From NCBI RefSeq assembly GCF_024223415.1, contig NZ_CP100500.1: a DNA stretch of 64,000 bases. One strand, given 5' to 3'. Of this stretch, positions 4,521-64,000 are shown piece after piece. The stretch comes from Escherichia coli (GTDB taxonomy: Bacteria > Pseudomonadota > Gammaproteobacteria > Enterobacterales > Enterobacteriaceae). The position numbers were made by a program, and so were the translations under genes. How positions within the stretch are numbered: position 1 is the stretch's first letter; each line of letters starts with the position of its first letter. The notes below the pieces were generated by a model. The model searched no databases. It was not told where the DNA came from and saw only the letters and a list, made by a program, of their open reading frames with translations.

Positions 4521-4583
4521 CTGTTACGGCCAGGTGATTCGTCGTGACCAGGAAAGTGCATTAGCCTGTTGGGGGATAGATCA

Positions 4584-5051
4584 GTGAGCAGAGTCGCCGC
4601 GATTATTTATGCTCTGGTTATCTGCATCATCGTCTGCCTGTCGTGGGCGGTCAATCATTACCGTGATAACGCCATCGCCTACAAAGAACAGCGTGATAAA
4701 AAAGTCAGTGAGCTGAAGCAGGCGACCGCCACCATTACTGACATGCAGCAACGCCAGCGTGCTGCTGATGTACTCGATGCTAAATACACGAAGGAGTTGG
4801 CTGATGCGAAAGCTGAAAATGATGCTCTTCGGCGCAAGCTTGATAATGGTGGTCGGGTGCTCGTCAAAGGAAAATGCCCTGTGCCATCCTCAGCCGAAAC
4901 CTCCAGCGCCTCCGGCATGGGCAATGATGCCACCGTCGAACTCTCTCCAGTTGCTGGACGAAACGTTCTCGGTGTCCGGGACGGAATTATCCGCGACCAA
5001 ACAGCACTGAGAACGCTTCAGGAATACATCAGGACGCAATGCCTTCGATGA
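4584..5051 (+). CDS. Rz: Rz i-spanin
   Basis: GTG start, [40 protein letters not shown]... closely matches lambda Rz as recalled; N-terminal TM anchor. Confidence 0.85.
4804..5010 (+). CDS. Rz1: Rz1 o-spanin lipoprotein, embedded in the +1 frame of Rz
   Basis: [21 protein letters not shown]... with lipobox VVGC and proline-rich mature part; entirely inside Rz. Confidence 0.8.
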
Positions 5052-5546: not shown

Positions 5547-5741
5547 TTATTCATCATCTCTTTGGATTGATGTATATGCTCTCTTTTCTGACGTTAGTCT
5601 CCGACGGCAGGCTTCAATGACCCAGGCTGAGAAATTCCCGGACCCTTTTTGCTCAAGAGCGATGTTAATTTGTTCAATCATTTGGTTAGGAAAGCGGATG
5701 TTGCGGGTTGTTGTTCTGCGGGTTCTGTTCTTCGTTGACAT
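5547..5741 (-). CDS. YlcI/YnfO-family small protein (DUF3950, ribbon-helix-helix-like)
   Basis: 64 aa with motif NIRFP...NFSAWV..AC; paralogous to the ORF at 63486-63683; this family sits before the terminase genes in DLP12 and Qin. Confidence 0.7.
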   Translation of the reverse strand: MSTKNRTRRTTTRNIRFPNQMIEQINIALEQKGSGNFSAWVIEACRRRLTSEKRAYTSIQRDDE

Positions 5742-5899
5742 GAGGTTGCCCCGTATTCTGTGTCGCTGATTTGTATTGTCTGAAGTTGTTTTTACGTTAA
5801 GTTGATGCAGATCAATTAATACGATACCTGCGTCATAATTTATTATTTGACGTGGTTTGATGGCGTAGATGCACGTTGTGACATGTAGATGATAATTAT

Positions 5900-6060
5900 T
5901 ATCATTTTGCGGGTCCTTTCCGGCATGTGGACCCGTTACGGGGCGTCGACCTCGCGGTTTTTCGCTATTTATGAGATTTTTTGAGGGGGTGGTTGTTGTT
6001 TAATTGTTTGGTATATCTAATTGATAAGTAAGGTGAAAATAAAATAAATACAACAACCTT
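5900..6060 (+). other. cos site (cosN cohesive-end sequence at 5941-5952, flanked by cosQ and cosB regions)
   Basis: gttacg|GGGCGTCGACCT|cgcggtttttcgctatttatga matches the lambda cos sequence GGGCGGCGACCTCGCGGGTTTTCGCTATTTATGA with one mismatch in the 12-nt overhang. Confidence 0.75.
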
Positions 6061-6168: not shown

Positions 6169-6675
6169 ATGGCCTTTTTATTGAATAAAAGTGATATGGC
6201 CTCCTCCATCGGTATCTCTGTTCAGGCATTTGATAAATGGGGCGTTCCTCCTGTCGAGCGTCGGGGGAGGGAAGTTTTTTATGACGTTAAAACTGTACTG
6301 GAGATAGATCGCGAGCGGCGACAACACAATCATAGAACACCTGATGACGGGGGCGATCTGGAGGAAAGGCTGCTTCGGGCCAGAGCTGAACTGACAGAAG
6401 AACAGGCCGTAGCTCAAAAACTTAAAAATCAGGTAACCGAAGGTAAGCTCATCGATTCAGACTTCTGCGTTTTCGCCCTCAGCAAGCTGGCAATGGCGTT
6501 ATCCAGTACGCTTGATTCCATCCCTTTATCCATGCAACGACAGTTTCCTGATTTAACACCGCGCCATCTTGACCATCTGAAAACCCTTATTGCGAAGGGG
6601 GCAAATCAGTGTGCGCGGGCAGGGGATAAATTACCGGATTTACTCGATGAATATATCAGAGCAACAACTGAATAA
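6169..6675 (+). CDS. Nu1: Terminase small subunit (Nu1-like)
   Basis: N-terminal HTH region NKSDMASSIGISVQAFDKWGVPP aligns with lambda Nu1; exact start uncertain (6151, 6169 or 6196 all in frame). Confidence 0.8.
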   Translation: MAFLLNKSDMASSIGISVQAFDKWGVPPVERRGREVFYDVKTVLEIDRERRQHNHRTPDDGGDLEERLLRARAELTEEQAVAQKLKNQVTEGKLIDSDFCVFALSKLAMALSSTLDSIPLSMQRQFPDLTPRHLDHLKTLIAKGANQCARAGDKLPDLLDEYIRATTE

Positions 6676-45670: not shown

Positions 45671-48600
45671 TTATTCAAACAGGGCTTCAATATCGTTAAT
45701 TAGCTCGCTGGCGGTGATGGCATCGATTACGGAGAACTGCGCTTCCTGTGTTGAATTACTCCCCCAGCCATATCTTTCTGCTTTGCCTTCCCATAGCCAC
45801 AGCTTGCTTAAGAGCTGCTCAGCGCTGAGTTCGGCTGGCGACATGCCTACCGCAAAGCCTTCATCGATTTCCATGATTAACGACCAGCGACCCAAAGGTT
45901 TGATCATCCATCCGATCCAGCCTCCATCCTGTGGTTCGCCCTTTATCCAGCCTTTATTCGCCAGCCCCATGACCCGACCACTCGGGCATTTTCTGCCTGC
46001 CCAGCGGGTCAGTTCACTGGCATTGCGCTCGGCTTCTGTCAGGGCGTAGCTGTTACGGTCGATCTGGCGGAACGGTGGTAGCAGTTCGTAGTCGGCAAAA
46101 AGCTGACCAAAGGCGGCAGCATCCGTTGGTGATATTTCCAGAACGTGAGGAGTGCCGATAGAGATATCGCCTTCCGGCAGGGTGAAAAGATCATCGTCAG
46201 CGGTGCTGGAGCTGTTATCTTCTGCTACGCGAAAGCAAGCCAGTAGCTGGTTTTCGGCGCTATAAACGCCCCAAATCAGACGGCGGGTTAAGTGACGAAC
46301 CAGCGGATGCTCAACCAGGAAGAGCTGGAAGTTTTCCAGCGACCAGCGGCGGCGCAGGCACATGGCGGATTCCAGCCTTGCTACCTGCTGGGCGGCGATG
46401 GTACGCGCATCTTTTTTCAGCAATTTGTAGCGGTTAACCGCATCGTTCGCCCGCGTTTCATCATCGCTTTTGTTCGGTTTGGGCAGGTCTTTCAGGCGGC
46501 TGCCGGAAACATCACGCACAAACGGTTTTAAGGTTTCATCAAAGCTGACGGTGAACTGCCGTGGGCCAAAATCCAGCAGCAGCGAACCGTTATCATCCAG
46601 ACCGAGATCCGGTGCTAACCGATCTTCAAGCTCCGCCACCGTGAGTTCGCGGCTCTCGGCAATGTCGGCAATTTTTTCTTTTGCCCGCTCCTGTAATGCT
46701 TTGAATTTCAGTTTCTGGGCGATGCCGTTAAGCTGCATAAGGGCGATATCACTACCGATAGCAGCGAGAATATCCAACCCAACGGTGGCGCGTTTATGCT
46801 GGGATTCACCAGGCCAGGCGCGTATTAATGGCGTCAGTTTGCGGGCGGTGTCATCGTTACCGAGAACGCCTAACGCAGTGAACGCCCAACTCTCTTTCGA
46901 CGGCGCGCCAGCGGTCTGCCAGGCGGTAAACAGATCCCAGGCAAATCCCGCCAGTGAGTCGGCGGAACAGACGTCTTTCACCTGCAATAATCCCGGATAC
47001 AGAGCCTCTTCCTGAGGGAAGCGGAGCATTTCACCGAGGTGGAGGAGGGCGCTATCTGGCAGTGATTGGGCATTTGCTTTTAATACCGGGCGCGTCCAGA
47101 GCGATGGCTGATAAAAGGCCGGAAGAGTGGGGATTTTTGTCGGGTGATTATCTAAGGGATCGAGCGCAAGCAGAGCGTTCACCGCATCGGTTACTTCCGG
47201 CTGGTTATAACGTCGGGCGATTTCTTGCAGTAATGGCTGATGACCGTTTTCGGTAAGCATACGCAAGGCAGCGCGGGCGTTATCCTGGGCTTCACCGGCT
47301 TTGCCGAGCGCCGCAGGCAGCAGGCCGGTAAGGGCATGTTCCGGGTATTTCAACAGCCAGCTACGGGCGTTTTCGCGTAGCGTTTTCAGTTTGTTGAAGG
47401 CACGGGCGACGGCAGGAGCCAGCTCACTCGCTGCGAAGTAATTCGTGATGGGCAAGGCTTCTTGTGGATAGCGTGCAAGTGAGTTTACTAACCCAGGTAA
47501 CCCTTTGAGTCCAAAATGTAACATGGAGTATTCGGTATCGGTATGTGGAGATAGGGTAAGGGCATTCCATGCTTTTACTGCTTTCTCCAGCGGCAATGTT
47601 GTCAAAATCCCCAACTGCCAATAATGCCCGGTAGGTGAATGAAACACCTTAAATTCACTTAGTAAGGTTGAATAATCTTCATTTAGCCATGCCTCAACTA
47701 CCGCTTCGGGAGCTTTAATATATGTACCAGCGATCCGTCGTTGAAAACCCATCCTTGCCAACAGGTTGGTAGTACTTTCTTCATGGCTAACCGTGATGTG
47801 TTTTGAATACCAGATATATTTCGCCAAAAGTTGATTACTGATTTCTTCTGTCAGATAACAGATTGGCTCAATGCCTAATGGCGCTAAATCCAGCACCGGA
47901 ATCGGCGATTTTTTCTTTTTCGAAAGCCAGGGAGGGGAGACTACTACGGCTGGCAGTAGATCGGCGCTGGCATGGTTTGAGGGCTGTGTCAGTTGTTGCT
48001 GGCATGATTTCAGTACGGCAACTGCGGGTGTCGAGAGCCAGGGAATGACCTGTTCTGCCAGTGCTGGTTGTGAGATAAGCATTGTCATTAGCATAATGCG
48101 CCAACTGTTCTCTTCTTTTTGCCCAAGAAGTTCCGTCAGTGCCGCCATTGCTGCATGTGGGAACGCAGCAATGGCTTTCGTCATCCGATCGTGACAGCGT
48201 TTAGTTTGCCCGGCTACACGTATAAGCAGTGTCAATGCGAACGGATGATTGATATGACGCAACACATCGGCGCAGTAGTCACTTGCGGCATAGGGAGCAA
48301 ATCGGGGCAGGGCTGCAACACCTTGCTCCTGTAATACGGTGGCTGACCATATCGCACCACAATAGTAATCATCAAAAATGGCATATGGTTCGTGATATTT
48401 TTCTAATGAGGCAAGAATGTGCTCATCAGTCGCCACTATTTTTAACCACTCAAGCGAGGGTAATTTTTTTTGCCCCAGTAGACGCTGGGCAATTTCATGT
48501 GCAATTTCTGGTTTTTCGGGTAATAACAAAGCAATTAATGGTTGCCGCCATTCTGGAATATGTGGAATTGCTGCAATAAGTTTTTGTGCACATTTTTGCC

Positions 48601-59197: not shown

Positions 59198-60022
59198 TTA
59201 TCGCATTATGCCCATGAAGCCATGTACGCCCATATACACACCGACTAAGCCAATCAACAGACTGGAAAAATAGGGGGCGCGTTTAGCGAGAGTGTTAAAT
59301 CCGCTCCAGCGTTTTGCGACCTGCTGAACGCTGATTGCTGCGCCAACGCCTACGGTGACAAGCGTTAACGCCAGGCCAATGCTGAAACTGACGACCAGTG
59401 TTGCGCCCAGTGTCAGGGCTTTCAACTGAATGCAAATCAACAGCACGGTAATTGCTGCCGGACAGGGGATAAGACCACCTGTTAAGCCAAATAACAAAAT
59501 TTGCCAGTTGGTGACCTCTCTACCATCAAAGCGTCGTTTAATATCATTGGCATGGGCTCGTGCATGGGCATCCTGATACTCGCCATGTTCGTGATGGTGA
59601 TGATGTCCATGGTCGTGGTGATCTTCGTGATCGTGGTGATGATGTTCATGATCATACTCGTGCATATTCTCCAGCCAGTTGCGTTCGCCGCGCCAGGTAC
59701 GCCAGAACATCCAGAACGCGGTGCCAATAATGATCACTGCGGAAATCAGCTGGAGCCACGGTTCTGCTGATTGAGCAGTAAAGCGCTTGCTGATCACCAT
59801 CCCGCCAAAGGCAATTAACCAGACCACTGCGGTATGCGAAATAGTTGCTGCCAGTCCGAGCATCACCGCCTGTTTAATGGTGCCTTTGATGGCGATGATA
59901 AACGCCGCCATCATCGTTTTTGAGTGCCCTGGTTCCAGGCCATGAAGCGCACCAAGTAAGATGGCGCTGGGGATGAAGAACCAGGCGTTTCCTTGCTGAA
60001 GAAGAGTTGTAAATTCGGTCAT
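59198..60022 (-). CDS. rcnA: Nickel/cobalt efflux permease RcnA
   Basis: 274 aa with His-rich loop (HEYDHEHHHHDHEDHHDHGHHHHHEHGEYQDAH). Confidence 0.95.
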   Translation of the reverse strand: MTEFTTLLQQGNAWFFIPSAILLGALHGLEPGHSKTMMAAFIIAIKGTIKQAVMLGLAATISHTAVVWLIAFGGMVISKRFTAQSAEPWLQLISAVIIIGTAFWMFWRTWRGERNWLENMHEYDHEHHHHDHEDHHDHGHHHHHEHGEYQDAHARAHANDIKRRFDGREVTNWQILLFGLTGGLIPCPAAITVLLICIQLKALTLGATLVVSFSIGLALTLVTVGVGAAISVQQVAKRWSGFNTLAKRAPYFSSLLIGLVGVYMGVHGFMGIMR

Positions 60023-60143
60023 GATAATAATTCTTAGTATTAATTCGGCAATCTGATTCTACTCCCCCCCCAGTACCTGATACTACCCCCCAGTAGATTA
60101 ATAGTGCTATGATTTTTCATATTCTTGTTAACCAGGTGTTGCC

Positions 60144-60416
60144 ATGTCTCATACAATCCGTGATAAACAGAAACTGAAAGCGCGTGCCAGTAAGATTCAG
60201 GGCCAGGTCGTGGCGCTCAAGAAAATGCTCGACGAGCCGCACGAATGCGCTGCAGTTTTACAACAGATTGCTGCTATCCGTGGCGCGGTAAACGGTCTGA
60301 TGCGGGAAGTGATTAAAGGTCATCTGACGGAACACATCGTTCACCAGGGGGATGAGCTAAAACGTGAAGAAGATCTGGATGTCGTTCTGAAGGTGCTGGA
60401 TTCATATATCAAATAA
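60144..60416 (+). CDS. rcnR: Metal-responsive repressor RcnR (CsoR/RcnR family)
   Basis: 90 aa; divergent from rcnA. Confidence 0.95.
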
Positions 60417-60505
60417 TTTATTAACGCGATTGTAAAACTGCCGTTTTTCCTCGTTTACAACGCGTGCGCTGGACATTACCATCCTCCTCTGCGATTTATC
60501 ATCGC

Positions 60506-60557
60506 AACCAAACGACTCGGGGTGCCCTTCTGCGTGAAGGCTGAGAAATACCCGTAT
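60506..60557 (+). promoter_or_regulatory. thiM TPP riboswitch aptamer, 5' portion only, truncated by insertion
   Basis: AACCAAACGACTCGGGGTGCCCTTCTGCGTGAAGGCTGAGAAATACCCGTAT matches the E. coli thiM leader as recalled, then diverges (expected CACCTGATCTGG..., found TTTCTCATTTAG...). Confidence 0.75.
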
Positions 60558-60745
60558 TTTCTCATTTAGTGTTTTTTGTGGTTCGGGGTTGTTCGTGGTT
60601 GTTTGTGTATGTGTTTGATATATATTGAATTATTGTGTTTTCTTGTTTGTTGTTGTTCGTCGTTGTTCGTAGAGCTTCAACAAAATGTGTGGTCAGTTGT
60701 GTGGTCAGTTTTTTGAGGCTGGAGGACTGAAAAGAGGATCTGATA

Positions 60746-61969
60746 GTGGGAAAAGCACTAAACAAACTGAGCGATTCGACGTTAAAAAAATTGGCGTCTG
60801 TCCAAGCAGAAAAAGAGCGTTTTTACTCCGACGGGGGCGGGCTGGAGATTAAACACTCAAAGGGCGGCAAATTAACCTGGTATTTCCGGTACCGAACGGG
60901 AGGCCGTGAGGTTGCCGCAGAGCGGTTAAAGCTGGGGGCTTACCCTGAATTGTCGCTGAAAGCTGCAAGGGAAAAACGCGCACAGTGCCGGGCATGGCTG
61001 GCTGAGGGTAAAAACCCCCGTTATGAGTTGTGCGCCACAGTACAGGAAGCGCTAAAACCCGTTACGGTGAAGGAGGCGATTAACTACTGGCTGGATGAAT
61101 ATGCGAAGGATAACCGCAAAGACTACATAAAGCTGGTGCAACGTATGGATAAGCACATCATTTGCCATATAGGGGCAATTCCCCTTGATAAGTGTGATAC
61201 AAGGCAGTGGATCGCATGTTTTGACCGTGTACGAAAAAAAGCACCAGTAGCAGCAGGGCACGTCATGCAAACCTGCAAACAGGCGCTAAAGTTCTGCCGC
61301 AGGAGACGCTACGCGTTCAGTAATGCCCTGGACGATTTGATCGTCAGCGATGTGGGTAAGAGAGCAGAAATTCGCGAGAGGGTGCACAGCAACAGCGAAT
61401 TAAAGGAAATTTTACGCGCTATTGATGGTGATGTGTTCGCGCCTTACTACAGCGCGTTAATGCGCTTGCTGATTGTGTTCGGGTGCAGAACGGCAGAGGT
61501 CAGACTTTCAGAGATCAAAGAATGGGATCTGAAAGAAATGTTGTGGACAGTGCCAAAAGAGCATAGCAAAACGAAGGTAACGATATTCAGGCCAATCCCC
61601 GATGGCATTTTGCCGTTCATTCAGAAGCTGGTGGAGCAGAACCGGCATACAGGGTTATTACTCGGAGAACTGAAAAAAGATACCACGGTAGCGCAATATG
61701 GGCGAAATGCGCATAAGCGGCTTAACCAGGAACACTGGACGCTGCATGACTTTCGCCACACGTTTACAACGATGCTGAACGATTTAGGTGTCGATCCGCA
61801 TATCGTGGAGCACATCACAGCGCATCAGATGCCCGGTCAGCAAAAAACCTATAACCATTCACGCTATTTACAGGCGAAGCGAGACGCTCTGAATCTGTGG
61901 GTTGAGCGCCTCGATGTGCTGGCTGGAAATCATGAAAATATTGTCATATTAAGGGCTGAAAATGAATAA
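60746..61969 (+). CDS. int: Tyrosine recombinase, P4/CP4-57-type integrase
   Basis: 407 aa; C-terminal catalytic motifs (HDFRHTF...HITAH...Y); GTG start. Confidence 0.9.
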   Translation: MGKALNKLSDSTLKKLASVQAEKERFYSDGGGLEIKHSKGGKLTWYFRYRTGGREVAAERLKLGAYPELSLKAAREKRAQCRAWLAEGKNPRYELCATVQEALKPVTVKEAINYWLDEYAKDNRKDYIKLVQRMDKHIICHIGAIPLDKCDTRQWIACFDRVRKKAPVAAGHVMQTCKQALKFCRRRRYAFSNALDDLIVSDVGKRAEIRERVHSNSELKEILRAIDGDVFAPYYSALMRLLIVFGCRTAEVRLSEIKEWDLKEMLWTVPKEHSKTKVTIFRPIPDGILPFIQKLVEQNRHTGLLLGELKKDTTVAQYGRNAHKRLNQEHWTLHDFRHTFTTMLNDLGVDPHIVEHITAHQMPGQQKTYNHSRYLQAKRDALNLWVERLDVLAGNHENIVILRAENE

Positions 61970-62747
61970 TCTGGGCCGTGTATATCATACGCTGCCAATG
62001 GCAGCTAAAAAAATGGGATGTACTGTAGAGGATATTCTACATTTTGGTGCAACTAACCGACTTGAAATATGTGCGTATATTGATGATATTGAACAGAGAA
62101 AAGATTATTGCACTTTTAATGTGTTTTTTGATAATGAAGATAGCGAGAATAGTTTTTCTAAAACTATAAATAAATATAATTCCATATTTACTGACATGTA
62201 TGAAATATCATTGTTTAATTATAATGATGAGTTTTGTGTTGATGATGAGCGTATGGTTATTGAAGGTTTGTATGCTAATCATATGAAAGGCTTTTTTGCA
62301 ATACCATCTGAATTTCTTGTCGAAGTTGAATTGTCAAGTGCCTGTGAAATCATAAATCTATCGCCTCGTTATTTATATACACCGAAAGGTTATGGTGATT
62401 ATATTCGGTTGGATAGTATAGAAGGTCTTTCTATTCCAGAAAACAGGCTCGTGATATTCGATAGTGAGATATCGGGTTTTAATTATCAAAAGAAACCTAA
62501 ATATGCCGGAGGTGAAAGAGAATCACCTAAAACCAGAGCTAAAAAAGCCGAGATAATACCTGCTCTCATAAAACTGATCCCTGAGATGCAAGATGTGGAT
62601 TTGGAGGATACACCCGTATCCAAAATTGCAGAAATGATAGAGGTTATTGCTGCACAAAGAGGGGTTGAGTTACCTAGCACTCACAGGCAGACATGGCAGA
62701 AATATTTAGGGCGTGATGCTGGTGACGTTCCAAAACGTCAAAAGTGA
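61962..62747 (+). CDS. Hypothetical protein, low GC, start overlaps the integrase stop
   Basis: 261-aa ORF overlapping the int stop (ATGAATAA); AT-rich codon usage; no family recognised. Confidence 0.6.
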   Translation: MNNLGRVYHTLPMAAKKMGCTVEDILHFGATNRLEICAYIDDIEQRKDYCTFNVFFDNEDSENSFSKTINKYNSIFTDMYEISLFNYNDEFCVDDERMVIEGLYANHMKGFFAIPSEFLVEVELSSACEIINLSPRYLYTPKGYGDYIRLDSIEGLSIPENRLVIFDSEISGFNYQKKPKYAGGERESPKTRAKKAEIIPALIKLIPEMQDVDLEDTPVSKIAEMIEVIAAQRGVELPSTHRQTWQKYLGRDAGDVPKRQK

Positions 62748-62837
62748 TATCACGTACAGATAGTGTGATATCACACAAACGGCATTTTACCACCGCCTAG
62801 AATCGTCCTCGTTCGGCAACGTTCGAGGACGTTTTTT

Positions 62838-63062
62838 ATGAATCAAAATACACAATTTCAATCACTATCAGATCGCGTAATCCGTGAGGATGAATGCCGT
62901 AAGTTAACAGGAGTGTGCCGCACTACACGCTACGAACTGGAGAAAAAAGGGAGCTTTCCGTCTCGCCGTAATCTTGGTGGGCGTTCTGTAGGTTGGCTGC
63001 TGTCCGAGGTTATGGAATGGGTTAAAAGCCGGGATCGCATTAATTCAGGCAAGGCAGCGTAA
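62838..63062 (+). CDS. alpA: AlpA-family phage transcriptional regulator
   Basis: 74 aa; HTH region RKLTGVCRTTRYELEKKGSFPSRRNLGGRSVGWLLSEVMEWV typical of AlpA. Confidence 0.85.
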   Translation: MNQNTQFQSLSDRVIREDECRKLTGVCRTTRYELEKKGSFPSRRNLGGRSVGWLLSEVMEWVKSRDRINSGKAA

Positions 63063-63200
63063 AGGGGAGTATATGACACATAAAACAAAGGCGACCGGGG
63101 GCGGTCGCCAATGGGAAAACACTAAACATAAGCCCGGCCATCATAGCGATTTGCTGGCTGGTGGGCAATGTGTCCAGTGTGGTGGCTTGCTGGTGGATTG

Positions 63201-63428
63201 TCAGCCAGGCGGTCGGTTTTTGCCGGATTTAAGCCGCCGTGGGTATTTATCGACAAAATCTTCAAGGGCAAATTTTTCTGGTGGCACTAAGCGCGGCGCT
63301 GGTGGTGGTATTTTTGTTCTGGTTAGTTCTTCCTCAAGTCTGGCGCAGGCTTCTGACTGCCTTTGCCGGATGATTTCATCATCTTGCGTTTGCGTGTCTT
63401 GTATTGGTGATAGTGTGTTGTTGGTCAT
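63201..63428 (-). CDS. Hypothetical protein
   Basis: 75-aa ORF downstream of the RHH-like gene on the same strand. Confidence 0.45.
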   Translation of the reverse strand: MTNNTLSPIQDTQTQDDEIIRQRQSEACARLEEELTRTKIPPPAPRLVPPEKFALEDFVDKYPRRLKSGKNRPPG

Positions 63429-63485
63429 GATACTGCCCTGTAAAGCAATGCGCCGTAGTACCTCACACCACGGCGCTGATAGTGA

Positions 63486-63683
63486 TTATTCTGATTCTTT
63501 GGCCTTGCGGCGCTGTTCATATTTTAATTTGCGTCCACAGGCATCTAAGACCCATGCGGAAAAATTAGCACTAGGATTAGTTAATTTTTCTTGTTCAACG
63601 CTGGCATCAATCCCATCTATAAGCTCATGTGGGAATCGAATATTTTTCTTTGCTGATTTGTTGTTTGTGTTACCACTAGACAT
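63486..63683 (-). CDS. YlcI/YnfO-family ribbon-helix-helix-like small protein, candidate repressor
   Basis: 65 aa with NIRFP...NFSAWV..AC motif; SD GAGGTG; divergent from an operator-containing promoter. Confidence 0.7.
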   Translation of the reverse strand: MSSGNTNNKSAKKNIRFPHELIDGIDASVEQEKLTNPSANFSAWVLDACGRKLKYEQRRKAKESE

Positions 63684-63751
63684 TGATGCACCTCACTTAA
63701 ATGGACTTTATGGGCGCACACAATACAGCAAAAAAAGTGAGAAGTTAAGTA

Positions 63752-63790
63752 TTGACATGTGCGCACACATGATTCTAATCTGTGCGCACA
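63752..63790 (+). promoter_or_regulatory. Sigma-70-type promoter (TTGACA, 16 nt, TCTAAT) overlapped by two TGTGCGCACA palindromic operators
   Basis: -35 at 63752-63757, -10 at 63774-63779; perfect 10-bp palindromes at 63758-63767 and 63781-63790; related half-sites at ~63711-63720 and 63911-63920. Confidence 0.55.
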
Positions 63791-63883
63791 GTTTGGGTTG
63801 CATTGCTCAAATTAAGCAACGCCCCGCAGTGCTCGCAACACATGCAGGGCGTCTAACCAAACCGTTAATAGGAGTAACGATTA

Positions 63884-64000
63884 TGGCTGGAACACAGCAT
63901 ACCCCACGCCTTGCGCACACACAAACCGCCTTTGTGTGGCGTTTTCTGGCACTGAGTGCCGGAGAATCTCAAATTATCCACGTAACCGCCTGGACGGAAC
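63884..64000 (+). CDS. Hypothetical protein, 5' end only (runs off the window)
   Basis: ATG with SD AGGAG downstream of the operator-controlled promoter. Confidence 0.5.

Follow-up and report, generated by a model that had tools for sequence, protein, structure and literature searches.

Near the two ends of the 64,000-nucleotide stretch of Escherichia coli DNA analysed here (the window), two small genes of the same family are carried by two different mobile elements, a lambda-like prophage and an island. The question that this raises is what such a protein does in each element and, in particular, whether the island copy controls the genes that lie beside it. The two genes are the following.

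5547..5741, minus strand: prophage YlcI/YnfO-family gene, 64 aa, from the ORF listing and family HMM matches; the protein begins MSTKNRTRRTTTRNIRFPNQMIEQINIALEQKGSGNFSAWVIEACRRRL
63486..63683, minus strand: island YlcI/YnfO-family gene, 65 aa, predicted RHH repressor; the protein begins MSSGNTNNKSAKKNIRFPHELIDGIDASVEQEKLTNPSANFSAWVLDACGRKL

An earlier note on this DNA had placed the pair at these positions, and the ORF listing agrees exactly, with both reading frames on the minus strand. It had also described a shared NIRFP...NFSAWV..AC core, to be checked by pairwise alignment; BLASTP recovers this core within a match of 25 identities over 58 positions (43%), with 71% positives and an E-value of 2e-18. 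The hydrophobic and dimer-core positions I15, F17, I25, F41, V45, A48 and C49 are near-invariant in the phage and island types, and the residues predicted to read DNA are TTTRN in the phage copy as against SAKKN in the island copy. Both proteins pass the curated HMM cut-offs of 25 bits for PF13132 (DUF3950) and 30 bits for NF041551 (YlcI_YnfO_N), the prophage copy scoring 72.8 and 37.7 bits and the island copy 28.3 and 59 bits, respectively. Both also match phrog_949, with E-values of 1.6e-35 for the prophage copy and 1.4e-27 for the island copy. The two genes are plain members of the YlcI/YnfO (DUF3950) family. The description of this family as uncharacterised is borne out by a full-text literature search for YlcI, YnfO and DUF3950, which gave incidental mentions only, in mutation tables and gene lists. 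PADLOC found no known defence system for either protein or for any of their neighbours.

The island-type subfamily is found throughout Enterobacterales. Some distant family members are longer: in P0305, P0324, P0344, P0354 and P0372 (116-147 aa), the YlcI-like domain is N-terminal and is followed by weak matches to the Pfam entry ‘Recombinase’ (PF07508), and these proteins may be fusions or truncated recombinase-associated regulators. In P0246, a protein of 3145 aa, 23 separate stretches match the family profile, all at profile positions 26-45, which is probably a repeat or low-complexity artefact.

The island is a phage satellite of the PICI/cf-PICI type adjoining rcnR. Its visible part contains, in order, an integrase gene, a 261-aa ORF, alpA, a 75-aa ORF, the YlcI-like gene and an Icd-like gene, of which only the 75-aa ORF and the YlcI-like gene run leftward. 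The features that frame the YlcI-like gene are listed below.

60746..61969, plus strand: tyrosine integrase beside rcnR, marking the satellite's left end (Pfam Arm-DNA-bind_3 and Phage_integrase)
62838..63062, plus strand: alpA (Phage_AlpA, PF05930, E 4.4e-16), convergent with the leftward unit
63080..63109, minus strand: terminator-like hairpin with a T-run; stem 63109-63090, 8 pairs (7 G-C), tail TTTGTTTTAT
63201..63428, minus strand: variable 75-aa ORF downstream of the island YlcI-like gene, in the same leftward unit (ORF listing)
63883..64000, plus strand: 5' part of the first rightward gene (Icd-like), truncated where the window stops; presumed first repressed gene

The hairpin at 63080..63109 would end the leftward unit before alpA. 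The 75-aa ORF has no Pfam or PADLOC match; in a related island (L001) and in CFT073 its place is taken by a basic ORF of 57 aa that is unrelated to it, and the Serratia, Dickeya, Klebsiella and Yersinia relatives lack it. The L001 island (E. coli JNE170426, 95% identical) is located between rcnR and thiM, and the translation of the window's Icd-like gene is 82% identical to the L001 gene annotated ‘host cell division inhibitor Icd-like protein’. The window ends inside this gene, and the packaging module was read in L001, which extends beyond the visible island of the window. There, the element continues with DUF4222, RepA helicase, SSB and PerC, and then capsid, protease, portal, connector, HNH, TerS and TerL. 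This gene set is the content of a capsid-forming PICI (compare 10.1101/2022.09.08.507074).

The earlier note had placed palindromic operators next to the island gene and took them to suggest a DNA-binding regulatory role. The boxes are present in the DNA, three of them within 80 bp, and they fall on the candidate promoters of two divergent units.

63711..63720: box O3, TGGGCGCACA (one mismatch), abutting the TATTGT -10-like element of the leftward promoter
63752..63779, plus strand: candidate rightward promoter TTGACA-16 nt-TCTAAT of the icd-like/replication operon, read from sequence
63758..63767: box O1, TGTGCGCACA, directly after the TTGACA -35 (63752-63757), filling the spacer of the rightward promoter
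63781..63790: box O2, TGTGCGCACA, right after the -10-like TCTAAT (63774-63779), covering the expected rightward transcription start

Two of the three boxes thus sit on the divergent rightward promoter and one at the island gene's own, where O3 is a putative autoregulation site. At one mismatch or fewer, TGTGCGCACA has exactly three matches in the 64-kb window, all within these 80 bp, against a chance expectation of about 3.7 over the whole window. A consensus promoter scanner missed the rightward promoter because position 2 of its -10 element is C. In relatives, the -35 is kept as TTGAC(A/G), and the TATTGT -10-like element of the leftward promoter is conserved. A gene of this kind, divergent from an excision/replication operon and with a regulatory region between, as is characteristic of the repressor class, is found in the window, in L001, in EcCICFT073 and in the Serratia, Dickeya, Klebsiella and Yersinia elements.

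We gathered relatives from Serratia, Dickeya, Klebsiella and Yersinia genomes, a 16.5-kb record (L004), 31 IMG/VR loci and EcCICFT073. In these relatives, the YlcI-like gene lies on the opposite strand, between the int-alpA module and a set of small ORFs with primase/helicase. They share a plan in which one box adjoins TTGAC (an equivalent box does so in 13 of 15 related elements), a second lies about 23 bp off and a third is near TGTAT(T/G)GT. Each related element has repeated boxes, mostly three, at the same positions, and the core is specific to the element: we observed GCGC, TTTAAA, GTAGAC, GCACCC, GCGGCC, TTGGGG and GGGGTA. The box sequences seen were GTGCGCAC, GTTTAAAC, GTGTAGACA, GTGTAAACA, GTGCACCCAC, GTGCGGCCAC, GTGTTGGGGCAC and GGTGGGGGTACAC. 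EcCICFT073 (L043 5931-16655; CFT073 1377930-1388654) carries its YlcI/YnfO-family gene at precisely this position and has two GGTGTGGCCCAC boxes with the same promoter layout; its protein is a divergent member in which RVP replaces RFP and SQFII replaces FSAWV.

The cores follow a particular part of the protein. Across 15 distinct elements, the distance between box cores correlates with the distance between the six residues N-terminal to IRFP (Mantel r 0.23, p 0.04) and not with that between the rest of the proteins (r -0.06, p 0.58); this covariation is modest, and because gene and boxes are adjacent, linkage inflates their co-inheritance. One IMG/VR locus, L030, encodes a protein 81% identical to that of the window in which, apart from N-terminal S2A and S3T, the only change in the arm and strand is N14H; its box is GTGCACCCA as against GTGCGCACA, N14H accompanying a change of core from GCGC to GCACCC. 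There are exceptions: L038 combines a KKN strand with a different box, L031 has KKG with GCGC, and L032 and L030 have the same box with differing strands. Two phage contigs (L039 and L040) encode a homologue 50-54% identical, next to terL and outside any PICI context, with the same AKKN strand and a GTGTGCGCAC box that touches the ATG.

Loci with a 100%-identical gene and identical boxes encode AlpA proteins 55-100% identical and Icd-like proteins 48-100% identical to those of the window, and they include two leader/first-gene types and differing downstream ORFs. Since identical gene-plus-boxes sets occur with such divergent AlpA, Icd-like and downstream ORFs, the gene and its boxes travel as a cassette. 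These comparisons tie the boxes to the YlcI-like protein and not to a neighbour, and binding of the boxes by this protein is likely. Of 5426 complete E. coli genomes, 68 carry the GCGC-type cassette.

The number of operators varies among otherwise identical cassettes, as seen in two loci: upstream of the gene in L015 (IMG/VR), a tandem duplication adds an extra copy of the unit ...GTGCGCACAGATTAAAATCATAT..., and in L025 one box has been lost. The L004 record (LR881103.1, ‘Escherichia phage vB_KppS-Ant’, 16.5 kb) is deposited as a phage and encodes the gene set of a cf-PICI-like satellite (integrase, primase, capsid, portal and terminase). A mis-called ORF of 975 nt on the opposite strand masks the YlcI-like gene of this record.

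The earlier note had proposed structure prediction for an RHH fold as a check on its suggestion. A monomer AlphaFold model built on an alignment of 46 sequences (pLDDT 72) predicts an extended segment at residues 13-18 followed by helices at 19-32 and 37-62. Foldseek neighbours of this model are mostly RHH proteins, among them CopG-family and TacA antitoxins, and none of the matches is significant. RHH domains require a dimer for folding, and because they fold only as dimers we also built a tethered-dimer model of the island protein, from an alignment in which each of 55 family members was joined to a second copy of itself by a 30-residue Gly/Ser linker. In both halves of this AF2 model, a strand at residues 10-18 is followed by helices at 19-35 and 41-62, with a core pLDDT of 87-90 and a disordered linker. 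The model thus has the strand-helix-helix topology of an RHH protein within a domain of about 45 residues, and it forms an intertwined homodimer with a two-stranded antiparallel ribbon, the dimer being imposed by the linker. With this predicted fold, the strand-helix-helix arrangement that had been looked for is recovered, and the suggested DNA-binding regulatory role gains support, the fold being of a DNA-binding kind.

In profile searches, no significant match to a curated RHH family was obtained, and the sub-threshold RHH matches were to HicB_lk_antitox (E 0.22), HicB-like phrogs (E 0.019-0.039) and an Arc-like phrog (E 0.23). A sequence search of the PDB with the single protein and with a first family profile returned nothing relevant; matches of the single protein to ribosomal L16 structures (E 0.09-1.5) were taken as chance. 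With a more diverse profile, the best PDB match was the RHH protein CdbA, with an E-value of about 0.07. From the models, both genes are predicted to encode RHH proteins of about 65 residues. These proteins would dimerise through the N-terminal strand (K-x-IRFP) and the two helices (NFSAWV..AC), and the paired strands would insert into the major groove of DNA.

The prophage copy can be traced to a known phage. Its counterpart in lambda lies at 48109-48303 on the minus strand of J02459 (2710-2904 in L003, located by tblastn), 200 bp away from lambda's right cohesive end, and is unannotated in that record. The prophage protein is identical to the product of the lambda ORF at 61 of 64 aa, and the gene with its upstream DNA up to cos hardly differs from that of lambda (mean column identity 91%, taken across the full alignment). 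By sequence, the prophage copy is the conserved small ORF that lambda itself has between Rz and cos. In the window, its flanks are Rz (4569-5051) and a Nu1-type small terminase gene, terS (about 6169-6675), and two further features lie between the gene and terS.

5889..5905: perfect 17-bp (8-1-8) palindrome ATGATAATTATTATCAT, between the prophage gene and cos
5941..5952, plus strand: cosN-like cohesive end GGGCGTCGACCT, read from sequence; the right end of lambda aligns up to here

The cosN-like sequence is about 200 bp from the start codon of the prophage gene. The cosN of the CFT073 prophage, like that of lambda, is GGGCGGCGACCT; GGGCGTCGACCT differs from it by one base, which creates a GTCGAC site. 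The palindrome sits about 35 bp to the left of cosN and is imperfect in lambda (ATGATAATCATTATCAC), where the matching region carries cosQ/R4. A plus-strand promoter-like site, GTGACA-16-TATCAT, overlaps it. Besides this single palindrome, no repeated operator box was found near the prophage copy, and ATGATAATTATTATCAT is absent from the context of the same protein type in Stx phages, where the identical strand sequence RTTTRNIRFPN faces unrelated upstream DNA.

Proteins of this type are also encoded by a CFT073 prophage, in which ynfO is followed by ydfO (DUF1398), and by Stx phages with an HNH/PBSX-type packaging module. The position of the gene is the same in every case, with lysis genes on one side, packaging genes on the other and late transcription using the opposite strand, and the N-terminal ~50 residues are 85-100% conserved among lambda, the CFT073 prophage and Stx phages with differing terminase types. 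The prophage copy is a direct member of the group formed by YlcI (DLP12) and YnfO (Qin) of E. coli K-12 and the lambda ORF, and the ynfO of the CFT073 prophage occupies the same place, between the lysis genes and the terminase small subunit. The ydfO (DUF1398) gene that follows in Qin-like prophages is absent after the window's copy, for which no downstream partner was found in the window. K-12 ylcI has been listed among transcribed convergent pairs; in the literature on transcription of lambda lysogens, we found nothing on this ORF. Because the prophage copy shares the predicted fold and the conserved core, a DNA-binding role is the default for it as well, and it is probably also a DNA-binding regulator; its gene is monocistronic and runs antisense to late transcription.

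The reading that we prefer, with a probability of roughly 0.6, is that the two genes encode RHH proteins, that the island copy is a Mnt-like maintenance repressor acting on the boxes, and that the prophage copy is lambda's ORF. It draws on homology, family membership, gene order, box positions and covariation, together with the predicted fold, and from these we infer box binding, repression, autoregulation and a switch by AlpA read-through. One dimer would bind each 10-bp palindromic box. Occupancy of O1 and O2 would block the rightward promoter and silence the icd-like/replication operon. Autoregulation would come from O3, which sits where the leftward promoter begins. Since alpA, encoded upstream, points towards the repressor gene, AlpA-driven read-through would run antisense over that gene and into the rightward operon.

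AlpA is the known activator of Gram-negative PICIs and is switched on by the helper phage, and its over-expression alone induces EcCICFT073 (PMC6092414). Read-through of this kind would explain why AlpA alone suffices for induction; by the same observation, a repressor is not strictly required by the existing data. For Gram-negative PICIs, the capsid-forming cf-PICIs among them, the literature describes no repressor as known and calls it unclear whether one exists, with the phage inducer likewise given as unknown (PMC6092414); among the later papers searched, we found none that names a Gram-negative PICI repressor. As the repressor missing from this satellite class, the island copy is a good candidate.

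Another protein might, of course, own the boxes: AlpA, the Icd-like product, an integrase or excisionase, or a host factor could use them as operators, while the YlcI-like protein has some other role, for example in binding a protein or an RNA. Such islands are known to be activated by the DNA-binding protein AlpA, the adjacency of gene and boxes means that linkage could explain much of their co-inheritance, and the covariation, with its exceptions, is modest. Against this, identical cassettes are found with AlpA and Icd-like proteins of widely differing identity and with both leader/first-gene types, and the same strand residues occur together with a GTGCGCAC box in a phage contig that has no PICI neighbours. 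Moreover, the box core follows the predicted DNA-reading residues and not the remainder of the protein, and the predicted fold is a DNA-binding one; we consider ownership of the boxes by another protein unlikely. It is rather less probable again that the prophage carries its copy as a hitch-hiker ORF, in decay or without function, whose likeness to the island gene has no current functional meaning. Such an ORF would account for the fact that no operator, partner or published phenotype was found and that the classic lambda record leaves it unannotated, but not readily for the conservation of its N-terminal ~50 residues across lambda, the CFT073 prophage and Stx phages, for its constant position opposite the late genes, or for the transcription of K-12 ylcI. 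A further proposal, in which the island gene encodes an RHH antitoxin that forms a type II TA pair with the ORF at 63201-63428 and the boxes only autoregulate that pair, has the slimmest chance of all. The weak HMM matches to HicB-like RHH antitoxins fit this proposal, as does the gene order, in which a small ORF follows the putative antitoxin gene within one unit; TA pairs also typically have palindromic operators in their own promoter. However, the downstream ORF is unconserved and matches nothing in Pfam or PADLOC, two of the three boxes are on the divergent promoter, the prophage copy has no partner, and no conserved, adjacent, co-transcribed toxin gene was found in the window or its relatives.

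A different kind of explanation couples the two copies, the phage protein either forming inactive mixed dimers with the island protein, as an inducer, or occupying the satellite's operators, as an anti-satellite factor. The dimer-core positions are nearly invariant in both types, lambda, a helper of EcCICFT073, itself carries the phage copy, and the literature names no phage-encoded inducer. Yet phi80 induces alpA of EcCICFT073 and its whole genome has no homologue (HMM search at E<=1), and the cf-PICI helpers HK106 and HK446 have none in the 4.5 kb of their right ends or the 1.5 kb of their left ends. The DNA-reading residues also differ between the copies, TTTRN against SAKKN, and the island box TGTGCGCACA is missing from the visible prophage DNA. 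We regard such coupling as very improbable. No more credence goes to the most far-reaching version, in which the family serves helpers and satellites as a common regulatory currency: Gram-negative PICIs and cf-PICIs would have the island protein as their master repressor, with operators specific to each element, and its phage paralogue, sharing the dimer core, would swap subunits or compete with it, for induction or for anti-satellite defence. As a universal PICI inducer, phage YlcI is excluded, the phi80 genome and the HK106 and HK446 ends being without the gene, while an interaction specific to lambda may still occur.

In addition to the boxes, the rightward operon has a leader in which RNAalifold on 18 elements predicts a conserved hairpin.

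63822..63858, plus strand: conserved 5' leader hairpin of the rightward operon; compensatory changes in 6 of its 12 predicted pairs

At 63862-63878 on the plus strand, another, smaller hairpin exposes the Shine-Dalgarno AGGAG as part of its loop, and covariation is seen in its stems (CGTTA/TAACG, CGATA/TATCG and TGTAA/TTACA). Neither leader hairpin was matched by Rfam at E<=1; the hairpins could represent a second layer of control at the RNA level. A P4-like immunity RNA has been reported in some GN-PICIs (PMC10111431). We rejected P4-type RNA immunity as the regulator here, since the Rfam search gave no C4 or isrK match at E<=1 in positions 60000-64000 of the window; in five related loci, only tRNA was found at the Rfam gathering score.

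How does the proposed maintenance repressor compare with known systems? By function, we propose that the island copy is like Mnt of P22, or like SaPI Stl in a Gram-negative PICI. To the Mnt/Arc proteins of P22 immI there is no significant sequence-profile relation (hhalign gave probabilities of 18% for Arc and <1% for Mnt); the six residues before IRFP align with the base-contacting Q9, N11 and R13 of Arc. The operators differ as well: the island has three separate palindromes of 10-12 bp, 23 and 47 bp apart and each sized for one dimer, whereas P22 Mnt/Arc use a single operator of ~17-21 bp bound by a tetramer. The controlled operon is the icd-like/primase replication operon in the island and ant in P22. 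RHH proteins of the MetJ/CopG type bind one dimer per short palindromic box (8-13 bp), with boxes repeated along the promoter; unlike these, the island protein has no evident co-repressor or metabolite link, and no membership was detected at the sequence level. Stl is a different and much larger protein than the island YlcI-like protein. The position and logic are nevertheless those of SaPI Stl/Rpr, a lone gene divergent from the excision/replication operon and so placed that it would hold the island silent pending the action of a helper phage (PMC6092414). In contrast to SaPIs with Stl, Gram-negative PICIs have an activator as well, AlpA, whose over-expression is enough for induction. The proposal involves no new mechanism, and the putative regulator would be of a known kind.

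PICIs move virulence and defence genes between bacteria, and a master repressor is central to the biology of those in Gram-positive cocci. For the acknowledged gap in this picture, we offer as a candidate a predicted RHH protein of 65 aa with three 10-bp boxes on the promoter of the replication operon. The candidate is present in the prototype EcCICFT073 and across the satellites of Enterobacterales, with box specificities that define ‘immunity types’. The predicted structures also assign a fold and a likely biochemical activity to a family of y-genes (ylcI and ynfO), and an overlooked ORF of phage lambda, left unannotated in the classic GenBank record, belongs to this YlcI/YnfO family.
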